Assembly: GCA_964405735.1 (NCBI GenBank)
Contig: CAYOPD010000006.1
Location: forward strand, 4,796-68,795
DNA from: an uncultured Saprospiraceae bacterium
Lineage (GTDB): Bacteria > Bacteroidota > Bacteroidia > Chitinophagales > Saprospiraceae
Reading direction: 5' to 3'
Length of the DNA stretch: 64,000 bases
Part shown: positions 54,957-64,000 of the stretch, piece by piece
Layout: each line of letters starts with the position of its first letter
Numbering within the stretch: the first letter of the stretch is position 1
Translations under genes and position numbers: made by a program
Notes under the pieces: model-generated
Told to the model about the DNA's origin: nothing
The model's database searches: none
What the model saw: the letters and a program-made list of their open reading frames with translations, nothing else

Positions 54957-57797
54957 ATGTCAGGAAAAAAGAGCCAGGAGACGGCTGAGGAAGAATTCAT
55001 AGAGGTGACTGGAGCGCGGGTGCACAACCTGAAAAACATCGATATCCGCATACCCAGGAATCAGCTGGTGGTCATTACAGGCCTTAGTGGGAGCGGCAAG
55101 TCTTCCCTCGCATTTGATACGATCTATGCCGAAGGCCAGAGAAGGTATATGGAGACCTTTTCTTCCTACGCCCGTCAGTTTATCGGAAATATGGAAAGGC
55201 CAGACGTGGAATTGATTACCGGTCTAAGCCCGGTGATATCCATCGAACAAAAGACCAGCGGATGGAATCCCCGGTCCACCGTAGGGACCATCACGGAGGT
55301 TTACGATTTATTCCGCCTCCTTTTTGCCCGGATCGGGGAGGCTTACAGCTATGTCAGCGGTAAAAAAATGGTCAAATACAGCGAGGCCCAGGTCATCGAC
55401 CATGTCCTGAGTACCTACCAGGAAAAAAAAATTATCCTCCTGGCACCGGTCATCCGGGGCAGAAAAGGCCATTACCGGGAGATCTTTGAGCAGGCCCGAA
55501 AGCAGGGCTATAGCAAGGTCAGGGTGGATGGACAGATGATGGACCTGAGGCCAGGCATGCAGGTCGACCGCTACAAGGTCCACGATATTGAGATCGTGAT
55601 CGACCGCATCCAGGTGCAGCATTCCAGGCGTGACCGGCTTGCGTCTTCGGTTCAATTGGCCATGAAAATGGGCAATGGCCTCCTGATGGTGGAGGACGAA
55701 GCAGGGCAGGTGGTGCCTTACAGCCAGAACCTGATGGACCCTGAAAACGGCATTTCCTATGAGGATCCGTCTCCAAATACCTTTTCCTTTAATTCCCCTT
55801 ACGGGGCCTGCCCAAATTGCGATGGCTTGGGCAAACTGCACCAGGTGGATATGGAAAAGGTGATCCCGGATCCTAAAAAAAGCATCAATGAGACCGGTAT
55901 TGCCCCATTGGGGGAGGTGAGGGAAAACATGACCTTCCAGCAGCTCAGGGCGATCTCAAAACAATATGGATTCACCTTCAGTACCGCCATTGAAAATATC
56001 CCGAAGAAAGCCCTCGAGATTATCCTGCACGGCGGTGAGGAAGGATTTGAAGTGAAGCCCAATTATTCACAAAACGAATTTGTATACAACCTGGCCCGTG
56101 AAGGCCTGGTCAATATGCTGGTCCGATGGCACCGGGACAGCACCAGCGAAAAAATAAGGCAATGGGCCGAGGATTTTATGACCATCAGCCTTTGCCCCGA
56201 ATGCCAGGGAGCCAGGCTGAAAAAAGAAGCGCTGCATTTCAAAGTTGCCGGTTTGAATATTTCTGAGCTTGCTGAAATGGACTTGTCCGATTTGGCCCGA
56301 TGGCTGGATGAGGCGGAACCAAAACTCAACCCAAGGCAACAACAAATCGGCCTGGATGTAATCAAGGAAGTCCGGCTGCGGCTCCGGTTTTTGTTGCATG
56401 TAGGCCTGGATTACCTGAGCATGAACCGGCCTGCGAACTCCCTCTCCGGAGGAGAATCGCAGCGTACCCGCCTGGCGACCCAGATTGGTTCCCAACTCAC
56501 CGGAGTCACTTATATCCTGGATGAGCCCAGCATTGGCCTGCATGCCAGGGACAACCAAAGGCTGATCCAGGCCTTACGCGAACTCAGGGACATTGGCAAT
56601 TCCCTGCTGGTAGTCGAGCACGACAAGGAAATCATGCTGGCTTCGGATTACCTGCTTGACCTCGGGCCGGGAGCGGGATCGCACGGTGGCCGGCTGGTAG
56701 CCAGCGGCATTCCCCGGGAATTTTTATTACAGGACTCGCTTACGGCCGACTATCTCAGCGACCGGAAAAAAATCGCTGTTCCAGGCAGAAGGCGTAAAGG
56801 AAATGGCCAGTTTCTGAAATTGTTTGGGGCCCGGGGGCACAATCTCCGGAAAGTGGACCTGAGTATACCCCTGAGTACCTTTATCTGCGTCACCGGTGTC
56901 AGCGGGAGCGGCAAAAGCAGCCTGATCAATGAAACCTTGTACCCGATCCTTCGCAAACATTTTTATGGCAGTGTGCAGAAACCATTGCCTTTTGACCGGG
57001 TTGAAGGCATAGACCTTCTGGACAAGGTCATTGAGATCGACCAGTCACCCATTGGCCGCACCCCGCGGTCCAATCCAGCTACCTATACCGGTGTATTCAC
57101 TGACATCCGTAACATATTCACCGGGCTTCCCGAGGCAAAAATCAGGGGATACAAGGCCGGAAGGTTTTCATTTAACGTAAAGGGAGGAAGGTGTGAAACC
57201 TGCGAAGGAGGGGGGATGCGCGTGATTGAGATGAATTTTTTGCCGGATGTCCAGGTCGAATGCGAAACCTGCCTGGGCAGAAGGTACAACCGGGAAACCC
57301 TGGAAATCCTGTACAAAGGCAAGAATATCAGCCAGGTACTGGATATGCGGGTGGAAGATGCCATGCATTTTTTTGAAAATGTGCCCAATATCCACCGGAA
57401 GATGAAGACGCTTTACGAAGTGGGCCTGGGTTATATCTCCCTGGGCCAGCAAGCAACCACCCTTTCCGGAGGGGAGGCCCAAAGGGTAAAATTGTCGGAA
57501 GAACTTTCAAAGCGGGACAGCGGCAATACGCTTTATATCCTTGATGAGCCGACTACCGGGTTGCACTTTGCTGATATACAACACCTTTTGGACATTTTAA
57601 ACCGCCTGGTAGACCGGGGCAATACGGTGGTAGTGATTGAACACAACCTGGATGTGATCAAAGTGGCGGATCACATCATCGACATGGGGCCTGAGGGCGG
57701 CAAATATGGGGGCAGGATAGTGGCGACCGGCACCCCTGAGGCCGTCGCCAGGTCTAAGGAGAGCCTTACGGCGAAATATTTGAAAGAAGAGCTCTGA
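54957..57797 (+). CDS. uvrA: Excinuclease ABC subunit A
   Basis: 'GARVHNLKNIDIRIPRNQLVVITGLSGSGKSSLAFDTIYAEGQRRY', two ABC modules, and zinc-finger Cys pairs. The track ORF starts at 54948 (TTG). Confidence 0.97.
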   Translation: MSGKKSQETAEEEFIEVTGARVHNLKNIDIRIPRNQLVVITGLSGSGKSSLAFDTIYAEGQRRYMETFSSYARQFIGNMERPDVELITGLSPVISIEQKTSGWNPRSTVGTITEVYDLFRLLFARIGEAYSYVSGKKMVKYSEAQVIDHVLSTYQEKKIILLAPVIRGRKGHYREIFEQARKQGYSKVRVDGQMMDLRPGMQVDRYKVHDIEIVIDRIQVQHSRRDRLASSVQLAMKMGNGLLMVEDEAGQVVPYSQNLMDPENGISYEDPSPNTFSFNSPYGACPNCDGLGKLHQVDMEKVIPDPKKSINETGIAPLGEVRENMTFQQLRAISKQYGFTFSTAIENIPKKALEIILHGGEEGFEVKPNYSQNEFVYNLAREGLVNMLVRWHRDSTSEKIRQWAEDFMTISLCPECQGARLKKEALHFKVAGLNISELAEMDLSDLARWLDEAEPKLNPRQQQIGLDVIKEVRLRLRFLLHVGLDYLSMNRPANSLSGGESQRTRLATQIGSQLTGVTYILDEPSIGLHARDNQRLIQALRELRDIGNSLLVVEHDKEIMLASDYLLDLGPGAGSHGGRLVASGIPREFLLQDSLTADYLSDRKKIAVPGRRRKGNGQFLKLFGARGHNLRKVDLSIPLSTFICVTGVSGSGKSSLINETLYPILRKHFYGSVQKPLPFDRVEGIDLLDKVIEIDQSPIGRTPRSNPATYTGVFTDIRNIFTGLPEAKIRGYKAGRFSFNVKGGRCETCEGGGMRVIEMNFLPDVQVECETCLGRRYNRETLEILYKGKNISQVLDMRVEDAMHFFENVPNIHRKMKTLYEVGLGYISLGQQATTLSGGEAQRVKLSEELSKRDSGNTLYILDEPTTGLHFADIQHLLDILNRLVDRGNTVVVIEHNLDVIKVADHIIDMGPEGGKYGGRIVATGTPEAVARSKESLTAKYLKEEL

Positions 57798-57811
57798 AGG
57801 GATAAAAAAAT

Positions 57812-57840
57812 AAAGCCCGATTCCTTTGAATCGGGCTTTT
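57812..57840 (+). terminator. Strong intrinsic terminator after uvrA
   Basis: Perfect 12-bp stem: 'aaagcccgattc' pairs with 'gaatcgggcttt', with a 4-nt loop and T-rich tail. It marks the left edge of the AT-rich island. Confidence 0.88.
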
Positions 57841-58170
57841 ATCAAATTACCCTTTACACTAAATACATATTGATTTTCAAGGATTTGAGGATACTAAATT
57901 TGATAATAGTCCTGGTAATCCTTGCGGTCTCAACGCATCAAATGGTCTGAAATTATATTCAGATCATATTTTTGATGCTATTGTAAATAATTAATTTATA
58001 ACTAAGTATAAACATTTAACAACTCCCGCCAACAGAAATAATTCTAGAATCCATCTACAACTGTGGTAATTCCAAGAGCACAGAGAATCCATTCAATAAA
58101 ATTTTTCATTTCGATTCAATTTTGAATCAAAATTATAGCAGCGCTGGAAGCCAAAGAATATCATAAACCC

Positions 58171-58365
58171 TTGGATATGGACGGAGTTATTTTTGTAAAT
58201 TATATGAATTCAGTTCATATATTCCTGATTTTAAGTATTATATATTACTTTACAGTTATTATATTATTGATTCCTCACATTTATATTATTGCTTTCGTCA
58301 AAGCTAAGTTGGCTTTGGGATTGACCATGTATCAATATTTCATTCACCAAGACGTAAAAAATTGA
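58171..58365 (+). CDS. Possible small two-TM membrane protein (very AT-rich ORF)
   Basis: 64-aa ORF with 'HIFLILSIIYYFTVIILLIPHIYIIAFV'. Hydrophobic ORFs arise easily by chance in T-rich DNA, and there is no independent support. Confidence 0.2.
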   Translation: MDMDGVIFVNYMNSVHIFLILSIIYYFTVIILLIPHIYIIAFVKAKLALGLTMYQYFIHQDVKN

Positions 58366-58422
58366 GTTTTTTTCAAAATACTTCCCTTTAAAATATTGAT
58401 ATTTAGCTTATTGTGATTAATA

Positions 58423-59952
58423 TTGAATGAACATTTTATTATGATAAATGAAATAAAATCCCTTGTAAACTTTGTAAACAAATGTAAAGTCCAACATCTG
58501 GAGATCTTCACTCGGGAAGATTTTGGTAGAAGAAAGACAAAAATGGGGGAATTATTTGAACTGATCCGGGACTTAGATGTGAAGACAGAGGATGATTTAA
58601 AAACCGCTTTATATGGTGATAAGATATTGGCTTATGGTTTTGATAAAATCTATTCAAGGTTCAAGGAAAAATTGTCAAATACCCTCTTTTTTATTGACAC
58701 CCGGACCTCAATGTTTAGCGAAAGGGCTATTGCCTATTACAACTGTTCAAGAAGGGCTTATATCACGCGGATACTGCTCGAACGCGGTTATCATAAATTT
58801 TCCATTTCCCTTGTTGAGAAAACTCTACCGGTAAGCCTTAAATTTGAGTTTAGTGATCTGTCGGTCCATTTTCTGAAAGCTTTGATCCGCCATTATAGTA
58901 CCCGGAATATTGATTTAAAAAAGTTTGAAAAATATAAAGATATTTATCTGCCAGCTATCCAAACCCTCAATGCTGAGAATAAGTTGGAAATCATGGTTTC
59001 AAACATTGCTTATGAAAGCAATGCTGCGCATGCTTCCAAGCACAGTATCATATCTGAGGATGCACTCCTTGATTCTGTGGAAACAGCAGAAAACCTTTTA
59101 AAGGGGGAGGCGTCCATCGATTCCATTATGGCCGCCTCAAAAATTTTACAGTATTATTTCAAACAGAAAAAAAATTATGGTGAATATAAAAAGATCACGG
59201 CCGAGGCAATAAAAAAGATAAGTGCAAAACCATTTAGATCTATCATTGCGATTGAGTCCCTGATTCACGCTCAACTGACTATGACCCTAATTACTAGGGA
59301 TATCAAGTCAGCCGAGGCTATCCGATCTGAGTATTTCAACAGTATTAATATTGGGAATTTCAACTGGTACGTCATTCATTATTATTATGCATTGACCTTA
59401 ATGCATGGAAAGTCGTACCAGAAAGCTTATGAAGTAGTTCAGTCCATTCTGAATTATAAATCTTTTTCCAAACAACCCCCCGTAATCAGGGAAAATTTTT
59501 ATGTCTTGCAGGCCTATACGGAATTTCTTCTCAAAATCGGACGGATCCACCCGGTCGAACAGTCACTGGATTTCAGGCTTACCAAATTCTTGAACCAGGT
59601 GCCTGAATATTCTAAAGATAAACAGGGTGTAAATATTGCGATTATTCTGATCCAGGTCCTATATTTTCTGACGGAAAGTAAATATTCACGGATCATCGAC
59701 CGGATGGAGTCTTTGAACCTTTATGCCTACCGACACCTAAAGCATGATGAAAGCTTTCGTTCACAATCCTTCATCAAGATGCTTACTGAGATGGTAAGGG
59801 CGGATTTTAGGAAAAATGGAACGGTCTTCCGCACAGGTAAAATTAAACAAAACTTAAAGAATGCGGCTATCGAAACTAACCCGGATTCGGCGGAAACCGA
59901 AATCATTCCATATGAGGATTTGTGGGAATTGATCTTGGAGCAATTGGAATAA
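58423..59952 (+). CDS. Uncharacterised ~505-aa cytoplasmic protein, island paralog A
   Basis: A long ORF in AT-rich DNA, which is improbable by chance. It is a full-length paralog of 60923-62458. There is no signal peptide, TM segment or catalytic motif I recognise. The start may be TTG at 58423 or ATG at 58441. Confidence 0.8.
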   Translation: MNEHFIMINEIKSLVNFVNKCKVQHLEIFTREDFGRRKTKMGELFELIRDLDVKTEDDLKTALYGDKILAYGFDKIYSRFKEKLSNTLFFIDTRTSMFSERAIAYYNCSRRAYITRILLERGYHKFSISLVEKTLPVSLKFEFSDLSVHFLKALIRHYSTRNIDLKKFEKYKDIYLPAIQTLNAENKLEIMVSNIAYESNAAHASKHSIISEDALLDSVETAENLLKGEASIDSIMAASKILQYYFKQKKNYGEYKKITAEAIKKISAKPFRSIIAIESLIHAQLTMTLITRDIKSAEAIRSEYFNSINIGNFNWYVIHYYYALTLMHGKSYQKAYEVVQSILNYKSFSKQPPVIRENFYVLQAYTEFLLKIGRIHPVEQSLDFRLTKFLNQVPEYSKDKQGVNIAIILIQVLYFLTESKYSRIIDRMESLNLYAYRHLKHDESFRSQSFIKMLTEMVRADFRKNGTVFRTGKIKQNLKNAAIETNPDSAETEIIPYEDLWELILEQLE

Positions 59953-60463
59953 ACAACAAGGCTCAAGTTTTGACTAAAATAGGCTTGTGGCTATTGGGGT
60001 TGAGTCCTTGAAGGATAAATTTACGTCAAATGGTGACATTTGGCACCCAAACTATTTCCTGATCGGGGGAAATAGGTACTTTTATTCTGCGCAATAGAAG
60101 TATTTGGCCAATAATTTTCAGTAAGAGTTGACACTTAAAGCAAATTGGTGTTCGGTAAACATATCAATTAGATCAATTTATATCCATATAGGAAACCATT
60201 GCTCTCTCCTTCGATTAGTATCAGGAATGGGCGGTTTATTAGTAATTTAAAAATGGCAAGCCAGGTTTAATAAATTTAATAACCTGTCTTTGTATAATTA
60301 TAGATTATTAAAAAGATACTCGACGGGACCATTATGGATATTAGTCGTTCTTTAAAGAATGAATGTATAGGATATGGACAGGATAGGCTTTATTTTGGGA
60401 GTGTGGGTTGTAGTTTCGTGAAATTAAAATAAGTTCGCCAGTGGTTCGCCGCACAAATAAGCC

Positions 60464-60745
60464 TTAGAGATTTGCCAGCCGCGTCCTATTTTCCCGAATT
60501 ATTTTCCCGGGTACTTTAACTATTGGAATAAGCGATCCTTGGGTGCTTATTCTGCCGGATCCCTTCTGTAGTTGAGTGGCCAAAGCAGAATACCCCAGCT
60601 TCATCAGAATCTGGATCTGACAATCCGGGCTGATGAGTCCTCTCGGGATATTTAATTCTGCCCTGAGCAGTTTTCTCTGTAAAGTTCGCAGGCTGAGACC
60701 AAGTAAATCAGCCAATTGACTTTTTGTTAGTGGTTCATGTTTCAT
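60464..60745 (-). CDS. Small helix-turn-helix protein (excisionase/DUF4248-like HTH)
   Basis: 'LTKSQLADLLGLSLRTLQRKL' is a clear HTH. 'LISPDCQIQILMKLGY' resembles the 'tpkqv..I...LG' tail of small Bacteroidota HTH proteins. The last ~40 aa are low-information. Confidence 0.6.
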   Translation of the reverse strand: MKHEPLTKSQLADLLGLSLRTLQRKLLRAELNIPRGLISPDCQIQILMKLGYSALATQLQKGSGRISTQGSLIPIVKVPGKIIRENRTRLANL

Positions 60746-60922
60746 TGATCTTCAAATTGTGATAGTGAAATATTTATCTAAACAAGATCTGAAATTGTGA
60801 ATCACATACGAGTTTCCACTACTTGTTGAATAGGACAGGGCATTCTTTATAAAATTGGCATTGTTAAGTAGCAATTAATTGAAAATCAAGTAGATAAAAT
60901 GCAAGATGTAGGTACTTAAAAT

Positions 60923-62458
60923 ATGAAAGTTATGTCAGAAATTATCTTTGATGAAATACGAGAATTAACATTACTTATTAAAAAGGCGAATGTAAATAAA
61001 CTTGAAATTTTTTCTAGTGAAGATTTTGATAAAAATATTAATCTTATGACCAAAATATTCAATGGTCTAAGTTCAAATGAGATTGTGAATGTTTATCAAT
61101 TAAGAGATTTTATAAAAGTCGCTTCAAATTCGTCAGAATCTTCGTTTAATAAATTATTCTATAGATTTCGAGAAAAACTAGTTAATACTCTGTTTTTTAT
61201 TAATACAAATTTAAGCTTATTTGGTGATAGAGCTAGAGCTTATTATGTGTGTTCTAAAAGAACTGTATTGGTAAGAATGATATCACAATTGGGTTTTAAA
61301 GAACTATCTCAATCCATTGCTGAATCAACTATTGGAATTACATTAAAATATGAATTTACTGAATTAACTCTGATTTTAAGTAAATTATTAATAAATCAAA
61401 TAGGTATTTTAAATAAAAAGAATAAAAATTATAATAAATATAAAATAATATATAAAAATGCAATAGACGTCTATTTTAAAGAACTTTCATTTTCTGAAAA
61501 ATGTCACGAATTAAATGCTTATCTAAACTCAACACATAAGCTTATTAATAACCCCATTAAATCTCCTGAAATCGAAAATTTGGTGAAAACCGCGTGGCAG
61601 TATGTAAAACAAAATCCTTCAATTGAACTTCTGAAAAATTGTTCGTTGGTAATCTTGAATTATGACAAAGAGAATAGACAGTTTTTACAGTATAAAAGCA
61701 ATACATTTTTATTTCTAAAAATGATTTTTGAAAAACCGTTTTTGTCATCAAATACATTGGAGTACATTATTAATGAATTATTTAAGGTTTTATTAATTAC
61801 TAAAGATTTAAAGACGGTGCTTAAAATTAAAAATTTGTACTTTAAGTATATTACAGTTACAGAATTCAACTGGTTTGCAATACAAATAAGTTATATTCAT
61901 ACATTATTTCACTGCAGGGATTATAATAGATGTTGGAACGAACTATTTATTTTTCATTCCAATAGTCAATTTAAAAGACAGCCTCAAATTGTATTACAAC
62001 ATTTTTTAATTTTTCAAGCATATGCCTATTTTCTTTGTAAAATAGGGAAGATTATTAATGTTACAACTGAAAAAGAATTTAGATTAAATAAATTTCTCAA
62101 TGAAGTTCCAGAATATTCCAAAGACAAACAAGGTGTCAATATCCCTATAATCCTAATTCAAATCCTCTTTTTCCTGGCCGATCAAAAACACCATTTAATC
62201 ATCGACAGAATGGACTCCTTGAAACTGTACGCCTACCGTTATCTTAAAAAGGATGAAAATTTCAGGTCACAGTGTTTTATACGTATGCTGGGGGAGATGG
62301 TGAGGGCGGGCTTCAAACGGCAGGGTACTGTGTTCAGAACGCAGGCTCTGATGGATAAGTTGAAATCGGTGCCCATCGATACCTATCCGTCCACGGCGGA
62401 AAATGAAATCATACCTTATGAGGACCTGTGGGAAATGGTTTTGGGTTTGCTTAAATGA
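60923..62458 (+). CDS. Uncharacterised 511-aa cytoplasmic protein, island paralog B
   Basis: An uninterrupted 1.5-kb ORF through extremely AT-rich DNA. It aligns end-to-end with paralog A ('KLEIF..EDF', 'F.EKL.NTLFFI.T', 'EFNW', 'EVPEYSKDKQGVNI', 'EIIPYEDLWE'). Confidence 0.8.
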   Translation: MKVMSEIIFDEIRELTLLIKKANVNKLEIFSSEDFDKNINLMTKIFNGLSSNEIVNVYQLRDFIKVASNSSESSFNKLFYRFREKLVNTLFFINTNLSLFGDRARAYYVCSKRTVLVRMISQLGFKELSQSIAESTIGITLKYEFTELTLILSKLLINQIGILNKKNKNYNKYKIIYKNAIDVYFKELSFSEKCHELNAYLNSTHKLINNPIKSPEIENLVKTAWQYVKQNPSIELLKNCSLVILNYDKENRQFLQYKSNTFLFLKMIFEKPFLSSNTLEYIINELFKVLLITKDLKTVLKIKNLYFKYITVTEFNWFAIQISYIHTLFHCRDYNRCWNELFIFHSNSQFKRQPQIVLQHFLIFQAYAYFLCKIGKIINVTTEKEFRLNKFLNEVPEYSKDKQGVNIPIILIQILFFLADQKHHLIIDRMDSLKLYAYRYLKKDENFRSQCFIRMLGEMVRAGFKRQGTVFRTQALMDKLKSVPIDTYPSTAENEIIPYEDLWEMVLGLLK

Positions 62459-62757
62459 GCATTTTGCAGATTAAACTTTAAGGGTATTCAATACTGAACT
62501 CTGCGAGGGGGTATGTCACAATCATTCGATTATATTTTTTATTAGAAGGCAAAATTTCCTGCAAATATTCATAAGAATCGCTAAAAGGGTTACCACAGCA
62601 AAATAAAGGTCTTGGATGAAAACATGAACATTTAAAATTCAATTCATTGTGTATCTCTGAAAGAAACCAAATTTTGACTTTTTGGTCACCCCCATCTCAT
62701 CCCATTGAGCCCCGAATTCCCTACCTTAGCGCCTCCTAACCAATACCATAGCAATCT

Positions 62758-64000
62758 ATGTCAGACCTGAAGAAGGATGCCCTCCAGTACCACCAGCAGG
62801 GGAGACCCGGGAAAATAGAAGTCATTCCATCAAAACCGCATGCCACCCAGCGGGACCTTAGCCTGGCTTATTCTCCAGGGGTGGCCGAACCCTGCCTGGC
62901 GATTAAAGCAAATCCCGAAGACGTATATAAATATACCGCCAAGGGAAACCTGGTCGCCGTGATCTCCAACGGCACCGCCGTGCTCGGCCTCGGTAATATA
63001 GGGGCCGAAGCGGGCAAACCGGTGATGGAAGGCAAAGGCCTGCTGTTTAAAATTTACGCCGACATCGATGTCTTTGATATTGAGATCAATGAGACCGATC
63101 CCGACAAGCTGGTGGATACCATTAAAGCCATTTCGCCCACCTTCGGAGGGATCAACCTGGAAGACATCAAAGCTCCGGAATGTTTTTATATCGAGGACCG
63201 CCTGAAAAAAGAACTGGACATCCCCCTCATGCACGACGACCAGCACGGTACTGCCATCATCTCCTCGGCGGCACTGCTCAACGCCCTCCTGGTGGTGGAC
63301 AAAAAAATCGAAGAAGTCAAAATCGTAGTCAGCGGTTCCGGCGCCTCGGCCATCTCCTGCTCCCGGTTATATATTAAACTGGGCGCCCGCCGTGAAAACA
63401 TCGTCATGCTGGATTCGACAGGGGTCCTCAACCGTAAAAGAACCGACCTCAATAAACAAAAACAGGAATTCATCACCGACCGGGACGTCGATACCCTCGC
63501 CGAGGCCCTGGTGGATGCCGATGTTTTCCTGGGGCTCAGCGTTGCCGGTGTATTGAAAAAGGAGATGTTGTTGTCCATGGCCAAGGACCCTATCGTATTT
63601 GCCCTGGCCAACCCGGACCCGGAAATCTCCTATGAGGATGCAACCAGCACCAGGGACGATGTGATCATGGCCACGGGACGTTCGGATTACCCCAATCAGG
63701 TCAACAATGTGCTCGGATTCCCCTATATTTTCCGGGGAGCGCTGGATGTGAGGGCCAAGGCGATCAACGATGAAATGAAACTCGCCGCGGCGATGGCACT
63801 GGCCGACCTGGCCAAACTCCCCGTACCCGAAGAAGTAAATTCCGCCTATGGAGGAACCAATCTCCATTTTGGCCCCGAATACATCATCCCCAAGCCGGTC
63901 GACCCCAGGCTGATCACCACCGTAGCCATTGCCGTGGCCAAAACCGCAATTGAAACCGGGGTAGCGCGCAAAAACATTGATGATTGGGAAGCTTATGGGG
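62758..64000 (+). CDS. maeB: NADP-dependent malic enzyme (5' part; runs off the window end)
   Basis: My own translation from the ATG at 62758: '[41 protein letters not shown]', '[20 protein letters not shown]', '[11 protein letters not shown]', '[15 protein letters not shown]', '[10 protein letters not shown]' and 'ANPDPEI'. It is absent from the ORF track because there is no stop in the window. Confidence 0.93.

Follow-up and report, generated by a model that had tools for sequence, protein, structure and literature searches.

We analyzed a 64,000-nucleotide (nt) stretch of genomic DNA from an uncultured Saprospiraceae bacterium (contig CAYOPD010000006.1, hereafter the window), in which an AT-rich island at positions 57841-62757 separates uvrA from the malic-enzyme gene maeB. 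The island very probably represents a chromosomal, vertically inherited cassette of three genes: two anciently diverged tandem paralogs, here named A and B, from a very large protein family that is confined to Bacteroidota and covered by no Pfam or NCBIfam model, and a short gene encoding a 93-amino-acid (aa) protein with a putative helix-turn-helix (mini-HTH). As to mechanism, we tentatively propose a regulatory cassette in which the mini-HTH protein would work with a paired solenoid acting as binder or sensor. Identity and mechanism taken together form a plausible explanation that stops somewhat short of a probable one.

Genes A and B lie on the same strand around the divergently oriented 93-aa gene (Table 1), as described in a first-pass annotation made from the sequence alone, and their full-length products align end to end with 41% identity (E = 1e-120). 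Homologues of A use the ATG at 58441, which gives a protein of 503 aa, with a TTG at 58423 as the alternative start; for B, initiation at another ATG (60923) would yield 511 aa. At this base composition, stop-free frames of such length would be expected by chance with probabilities of ~1e-16 (A) and ~1e-20 (B), which, together with the purifying selection reported below, agrees with the earlier view that both are real genes. The proposed delimitation of the island by the uvrA terminator was likewise reproduced: a bidirectional hairpin marks the left boundary and the G+C trough ends at maeB, whose start at 62758 was fixed by alignment to the malic-enzyme gene of a related locus (L084; 754-aa product with malic, Malic_M and PTA_PTB domains).

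The uvrA junction was surveyed from the uvrA side in 11 lineages through UvrA homologues and contig look-ups, and cases were confirmed by hidden Markov model (HMM). A family member was found directly downstream of uvrA in 8 of the 11 lineages, over a range of UvrA identity of 72-96%. The order of the window (A, HTH gene, B, maeB) is repeated in L084/L085 (= L004), with 96% UvrA identity, and in L002, where uvrA is partial and yields no identity figure. At 86% identity, L086 carries a TrmB-like gene on the minus strand, A, the HTH gene on the minus strand and B, followed by an ATP-synthase operon. At 85% identity, L087-L089, L001 and L003 carry the minus-strand TrmB-like gene and a single family copy before the same operon; in L003, further genes separate uvrA from the TrmB-like gene and one more precedes the operon. 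In L001, L003 and L086-L089, the TrmB-like gene is divergent from A. Single family genes with unrelated outer flanks on both sides were found in L090 (84%) and L092 (72%), and L091 (83%), L095 and L096 (both 72%) are without a family gene. In a neighbor-joining (NJ) tree of 106 family proteins, the uvrA-linked copies form one clade with the A/B split inside it, which argues that the duplication arose in place.

Two side observations concern these junctions. The metagenome-assembled genome (MAG) USDE_metabat.41 holds both L002 and L004, which share the arrangement and are clearly distinct in sequence (their B genes are 74% and 67% identical to the window copy at the nucleotide level, respectively), so this bin mixes two related populations. 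Downstream of the single family copy in L087 (13938-14159) and also in L001 (11739-11960), a 73-aa gene is a fragment of DUF559, a Vsr-like endonuclease, which may indicate an earlier insertion, since decayed, at the right-hand edge of the locus.

Purifying selection acts on all three cassette genes. When the window is compared with L084, synonymous divergence (dS) of uvrA is 0.84, and the ratio of nonsynonymous (dN) to synonymous divergence is 0.03 for uvrA and 0.107 for the neighboring GH130 gene. Within the cassette this ratio is 0.057 for A, ~0.13 for B, whose dN is 0.305 and whose dS is saturated, and 0.16 for the HTH gene. Fast evolution or allelic replacement was considered in view of the 61% identity of B against 96% for UvrA, and was rejected for A on the basis of the uvrA dS and the ordinary dN/dS; B simply diverges 4.5 times faster than A. 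Conserved position beside uvrA, phylogeny and dN/dS therefore show that the cassette is an old resident of its chromosomal site and not a recent import, modified by in-situ duplication and by gain and loss of small regulator genes. This departs from the initial description of an accessory island with an unclear acquisition route, which does not fit the uvrA adjacency in 8 of 11 lineages, the monophyly, the in-place duplication and the absence of a mobility signature. The same description had proposed that identical content at the junction in all relatives would argue against an accessory island. Content is indeed identical in close relatives, whereas in distant ones it is related but variable: a single copy, a pair, either with or without a TrmB-like gene, or no family gene.

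Base composition sets the cassette apart from its surroundings. The G+C content of 57841-62757 is 0.335, compared to 0.497 ± 0.022 in 1-kilobase (kb) windows elsewhere, each of which reaches at least 0.42. The reported collapse of G+C after the uvrA terminator was thus confirmed, and so were the exact counts given for it (15 G+C in 57841-57900; 4 of 60 in 61381-61440). B has the lowest G+C of the window (0.28). At third codon positions, G+C (GC3) is 0.43 in A and 0.27 in B, 4 and 8 standard deviations, respectively, below the mean of the 48 other window genes (0.577 ± 0.037). Across three lineages, GC3 is 0.27, 0.30 and 0.22 for B, 0.43, 0.63 and 0.41 for A and 0.64, 0.65 and 0.48 for uvrA. 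Since low GC3 is kept in orthologues with saturated dS, it does not reflect recent import; the genes have long been AT-rich in this clade, and their AT-richness is no trace of recent transfer. In the family at large, genes are lower in G+C than their neighbors at 77 of 80 loci, by 6 points on average, and the median GC3 difference at these loci is ~0, so part of the low G+C stems from amino-acid composition. GC3 itself is depressed among the uvrA-linked copies and at a few further paired-copy loci (L005, L021). A long-resident foreign gene should have ameliorated, and the persisting bias has no explanation here. The maintenance of GC3 at 0.22-0.30 in a background of 0.5-0.65 across speciation may indicate selection on DNA composition or expression.

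A and B had no match in Pfam, NCBIfam, PADLOC or PHROG scans, and literature searches yielded no description of their family. A word-indexed search returned 102 relatives, all of ~500 aa, none with a Pfam domain and the named ones all labeled 'hypothetical', from Saprospiraceae and Lewinellaceae MAGs and from Flavilitoribacter nigricans and Adhaeribacter aquaticus. When 1.84 billion representatives were searched with a family profile, 3,990 clusters (at 50% identity) matched with E <= 1e-3 and 2,056 with 1e-30, and the architecture was almost invariant throughout, a stand-alone protein of ~500 aa. GTDB species genomes, counted as one genome per species, hold at least 575 family loci, mostly in Saprospiraceae and Lewinellaceae. 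Two copies are present at 22 of the 82 loci first scanned, to which all neighborhood counts below refer, usually as same-strand tandems, and the tree implies several independent duplications behind these pairs. In the metagenomic protein P0124 (1,032 aa), two diverged family units are naturally fused through a basic linker of ~25 aa, and the C-terminal motif of the first unit is degenerate.

An AlphaFold2 (AF2) model computed from an 81-sequence alignment contains 24 helices and no strands, with a mean predicted local distance difference test (pLDDT) of 90.2 and a predicted template modeling score (pTM) of 0.86. The family is thus confidently predicted to adopt an all-helical solenoid fold resembling tetratricopeptide repeats (TPR), in agreement with the first-pass annotation, which had judged both proteins all-helical and repeat-like from their composition. 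Three parts can be distinguished: an N-terminal four-helix domain of ~90 aa, a TPR-like solenoid at approximately residues 90-365 and a C-terminal module of ~140 aa. The family profile matches the kinesin light chain 1 (KLC1) TPR with E = 5e-5 at profile positions 112-300, and 2 of the 81 aligned members match TPR_2/TPR_8 marginally (E ~2e-4), with nothing else in that scan; A and B gave no Pfam TPR match at E <= 1. Foldseek searches of PDB and BFVD with the full model found generic solenoids only, at E >= 0.008 and template modeling (TM) scores <= 0.45, and nothing at E <= 1e-3. All best matches are TPR-like solenoids, and the solenoids matched include APC/C, eIF3, TTC7, AimR, NprR, Rap, MalT domain III, PPR and IFIT proteins. 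The HMMER and AlphaFold/Foldseek comparisons recommended at first pass therefore led to no characterized family.

Conservation is distributed unevenly along the protein. Residues 200-300 are the most variable and the last 140 are strongly conserved, with R440, F444, E487, Y491, E492 and W495 invariant and two motifs in the C-terminal module, a loop VPxYSKDKxGxN and an acidic-aromatic tail ExEIIPYEDLWE. Neither the conserved C-terminal profile nor a profile of the N-terminal 95 residues matched a PDB sequence, and a separate model of the N-terminal domain (pLDDT 74) had no fold match; the N-terminus thus gives no evidence of a built-in HTH in A or B. Neither protein has a transmembrane segment (maximum Kyte-Doolittle 19-residue mean 1.3-1.5), and the earlier statement that no signal peptide, transmembrane segment or catalytic motif could be recognized stands. 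Both are basic, with isoelectric points (pI) of 9.1 and 9.3, as is the family as a whole (median pI 9.28, with 94% of members above pI 8.5; median net charge +18). The positive charge is located in the solenoid and the tail is acidic.

The 93-aa protein has a pI of 11. The HTH assigned to it at first pass was recovered at the N-terminus (residues 6-28), at 21.4 bits for HTH_8, just below the cutoff of 22, and at 21 bits for Xre-like-HTH (cutoff 25.8). Against the PADLOC model mad1 there was only a 15-bit match over the HTH, and a homologue (P0372) carries a precomputed PF02954 match. In every case the gene sits between two paired family genes, 150-390 base pairs (bp) from the downstream copy and in divergent orientation to it. 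This arrangement was found at 5 of the 82 loci (window, L002, L004, L005, L036) and at L084-L086, which were added later. The putative divergent promoter region between it and B (60746-60931) contains the short motifs CAAGATC and GACAkGG, common to the window, L084, L002 and L086.

Among the functions suggested at first pass, a regulator or sensor pair is the most plausible. In a cassette of this kind, the mini-HTH protein would bind the intergenic region between its own gene and B. The solenoids, probably as an A/B pair, would bind a ligand, protein or nucleic acid through the variable basic groove, and the conserved C-terminal module may modulate the DNA-binding partner, serving as a shared output or interaction surface. 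In sister lineages, DNA binding would be supplied by the TrmB-like winged-HTH gene, which holds the equivalent divergent position upstream of A.

Several points weigh against this regulatory proposal. The function of the cassette proteins is a prediction rather than a direct observation. A and B are large proteins without a recognizable DNA-binding domain, and the HTH of their small neighbor is assigned from sub-threshold matches over ~20 residues in a tiny family (12 database matches, in close relatives). Fold likeness to TPR receptors is weak (TM 0.3-0.4), and scaffold TPRs match equally well. The NJ tree is distance-based and has no support values, and P0124, the sole fusion, could stem from read-through in sequencing. 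Elsewhere, most members of the family lack an HTH neighbor, and the HTH link may be clade-specific. The commonest neighbor, at 33 of the 82 loci, is an unrelated ~150-aa protein with a cysteine motif that is absent from the window, and giant HYR-domain surface proteins come next, at 19 loci. A Pfam scan of 120 immediate neighbors showed no enrichment of any regulator family.

Two features of the wider neighborhoods are described here in their own right. The ~150-aa protein is encoded 215-730 bp from the family gene (for example L038:11859-12323 and L009:7568-8017), carries the motif EVxFGSPSxxCxGxGIC, in which CxGxGIC is invariant, as well as a third conserved cysteine, and had no Pfam, NCBIfam or PDB match. 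In Adhaeribacter aquaticus (L094; KI421517.1, 837370-854863), the single family gene is divergent from an Opp-type peptide ABC importer operon (SBP_bac_5 and two permeases), a single and anecdotal case.

Alternatively, A and B could be nucleic-acid-binding helical-repeat proteins whose basic groove binds RNA or DNA, in the manner of PPR, IFIT, PUF-type or nucleoid-associated proteins, with a post-transcriptional or architectural role and with the HTH protein regulating B only. We regard this as rather unlikely. It would account for the high pI of the whole family and the concentration of charge in the solenoid, for the presence of PPR-RNA complexes, mitoribosomal PPR, Rmd9p-RNA, IFIT2/3, eIF3 and SKI subunits among the Foldseek matches, and for the absence of an HTH neighbor in most family members. 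However, these fold matches are weak (E > 0.008, TM <= 0.4), no regularity resembling a repeat code was found, the basic residues fall outside conserved columns and, in AT-rich members, lysine richness could partly be a by-product of AT-rich coding.

TPR proteins are often chaperones or adaptors, and the surface proteins noted above raise the prospect of a cytoplasmic scaffold or chaperone for giant adhesins of the type IX secretion system (T9SS) kind, of which the uvrA-linked copies would be a derived offshoot. The HYR/Ig giants (1,000-2,000 aa) are on the same strand as the family gene, mostly upstream and at the -1 position in 9 of 22 occurrences (for example L009, L013, L041 and L045), and at some loci a second giant SdrD_B/GEVED protein follows downstream. 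This association is limited to about a quarter of the loci, though, and no giant surface protein is encoded in the 64-kb window or at any uvrA-linked locus, which makes this explanation improbable.

The idea of a horizontally gained accessory island carrying a novel defence or competition module is largely refuted already, and we consider it very improbable. The compositional anomaly is strong, the family is missing at the uvrA junction in 3 of 11 lineages with varying content there, the 93-aa protein weakly matches an Xre-like antitoxin HTH and PADLOC mad1, and the DUF559 fragment adjoins the L087 copy. The plasmid search added a single, distant family match, a homologue of 27% identity on the Hymenobacter sp. 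BRD128 plasmid NZ_CP053909 (L093, 62156-64678), with a tyrosine recombinase 22 bp downstream and an RHS toxin, a transposase and a TraM-recognition protein in its surroundings; this was the only mobile-element context met. On the other hand, the cassette occupies a conserved position, forms a monophyletic clade across UvrA identities of 72-96%, is under purifying selection at the level of ordinary genes and retains its low GC3 in orthologues with saturated dS. As already stated at first pass, the locus shows no integrase, transposase, tRNA or flanking direct repeat: no open reading frame (ORF) between 57798 and 62757 matched an integrase or transposase, the 64-kb window contains no tRNA and no flanking direct repeats were found beyond the A/B paralogy. 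Of the genomic-island hallmarks, deviating composition was observed; mobility signatures were not, nor, among the lineages surveyed, were patchy distribution or phylogenetic incongruence. The suggestion of a defence or competition module found no support either, with no PADLOC-DB 2.0 match at E <= 1 and no PHROG match for A and B, no effector domain (nuclease, TIR, protease or NTPase) by Pfam and no defence-island neighborhood at the locus, and no family relative in IMG/VR or phage GenBank. Finally, a functional link to UvrA and nucleotide excision repair, as partner or regulator, with adjacency kept by selection, appears the most remote of these alternatives: the family protein is basic, same-strand adjacency (640-850 bp gap) persists in L090 and L092 despite wholly different outer flanks and the terminator and spacer block is unusually conserved, but a strong terminator and a long spacer separate the genes, so uvrA and A are not co-transcribed, adjacency is absent in L091, L095 and L096, and the great majority of family members lie far from uvrA.

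The non-coding part of the cassette is conserved as well (Table 1). The leader of gene A (~640 bp) contains several conserved blocks and is 78-81% identical to those of L084 and L002, so that it is as conserved as coding DNA across three lineages despite the uvrA dS of 0.84. The terminator hairpin with ~45 nt beyond it (57802-57884) is 100% identical in the three lineages and 78% identical in L086, and may provide a 3' end that is shared with a minus-strand transcript or a small RNA; an Rfam scan of 57000-64000 gave sub-threshold chance matches only. The same block is 100% identical over 63 nt in L082 and L083, two Logan contigs with 97% UvrA identity. Both contigs end 394 bp past the uvrA stop, just beyond the terminator block, and these assembly breaks at the cassette edge could reflect low coverage of AT-rich DNA or strain heterogeneity. 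Within the leader, a 21-codon ORF on the minus strand is conserved in frame, with its start and stop codons, in L002 and L004/L084/L085 and is confined to these three close lineages. Directly upstream of it, the palindrome GATTCAAttTTGAATC (7+2+7) is invariant in the three lineages; as a shared operator of the family it was discarded, since it occurs only in the closest relatives. Descent of the leader and its small ORF from a decayed TrmB-like gene, by comparison with L086 and L087, was rejected too, with tblastn of the leader giving E >= 0.5 at best.

Table 1. Features of the AT-rich cassette and its boundaries in window coordinates.
Feature	Position	Strand	Basis or remark
uvrA bidirectional terminator hairpin	57812..57839		terminator scan; left boundary
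AT-rich leader upstream of gene A	57840..58440	+	blastn, alignment, dS
21-codon ORF MKNFIEWILCALGITTVVDGF	58044..58109	-	frame conservation; candidate coding only
Perfect palindrome GATTCAA-tt-TTGAATC	58113..58128		alignment; candidate operator
Family gene A, 503 aa, predicted soluble basic TPR-like solenoid	58441..59952	+	ORF list, alignment, AF2, dN/dS
Terminator-like hairpin, 100 nt past gene A stop	60052..60075	+	terminator scan
93-aa protein, putative N-terminal HTH, pI 11, divergent from gene B	60464..60745	-	ORF list, HMM scan
Divergent promoter region, HTH gene / gene B (putative)	60746..60931		alignment
Family gene B, 508 aa	60932..62458	+	ORF list, alignment, GC3, dN/dS
maeB (NADP malic enzyme with PTA domain)	62758..64000	+	right boundary; continues past window end

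Compositional islands without recognizable genes are usually read as recent horizontal transfer or as defence loci. The present locus is a caution for composition-based island calling, as it proves, by synteny, phylogeny and dN/dS, to be an old resident cassette. The family is among the larger wholly unannotated ones in Bacteroidota. It is abundant in Saprospiraceae, a group of filamentous, hydrolytic and predatory bacteria with a key place in activated sludge and on marine particles. With a confident predicted fold and two culturable carriers, it is ready for Pfam/DUF definition and for genetics. A bolder and rather doubtful extension would see in it a Bacteroidota-specific class of basic solenoid receptors or adaptors (~4,000 clusters), hetero-paired and served by separate mini DNA-binding partners, with a unique C-terminal module (VPxYSKDKxGxN ... 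EIIPYEDLW), that is, a 'split' analogue of the RRNPP and MalT receptor-regulators. Selection, for instance on silencing or on the control of expression, would then keep its coding sequences AT-rich, with no foreign origin involved.

Comparison with known systems places the cassette proteins nearest to TPR-type solenoids. They share the all-alpha antiparallel helical-repeat solenoid of TPR scaffolds such as the kinesin light chain 1 TPR (PDB 3NF1, 5OJ8), but their repeats are too degenerate for Pfam TPR models, and they add a 140-aa C-terminal module without a PDB sequence match and a 90-aa N-terminal domain without a sequence or fold match. PPR- and IFIT-type proteins (5I9H, 7A9W, 9MK9) have in common with them a basic helical-repeat solenoid and a high pI, with weak Foldseek matches; A and B differ in that they lack any sequence match and that no 35-aa PPR periodicity can be detected in them, and nucleic-acid binding by them is putative. 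With AT-rich genomic islands the cassette shares a sharp trough of G+C and GC3 between housekeeping genes, and it differs in its conserved position, vertical descent, lack of mobility genes, tRNA and repeats and a bias that has not ameliorated across speciation.

The RRNPP receptors (AimR, 6JG9/5Y24/5XYB; NprR, 5DBK; Rap, 8RTC) and MalT domain III (1HZ4) are soluble TPR-like solenoids of similar size, and match the A/B family in Foldseek with probabilities of 0.94-1.0, but with E of 0.02-0.09 and TM of 0.3-0.45. Like RRNPP proteins, the A/B family is rich in paralogs, with a variable middle, a conserved end and a putative DNA-binding function encoded nearby. RRNPP receptors other than Rap carry an N-terminal HTH in one polypeptide with the TPR domain. 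The receptors are encoded next to a small gene for a secreted pro-peptide and bind, in the TPR groove, a peptide signal imported through Opp; for this last trait, the Opp-adjacent Adhaeribacter homologue is the one, anecdotal parallel. In A and B, a Pfam scan, the N-terminal PDB profile search and the fold search found no fused HTH, and neither gene is followed by a conserved small ORF; the 21-codon ORF of the leader has no signal-peptide-like N-terminus by eye (no predictor was run). Membership in RRNPP was therefore rejected, and the hosts differ too, Bacillota for RRNPP and Bacteroidota for the A/B family. MalT and other STAND proteins have an NTPase domain that A and B lack. In summary, A and B are best described as TPR-like solenoids of a very large unannotated family whose N- and C-terminal modules match nothing, and by analogy they would work most like a TPR receptor or adaptor.

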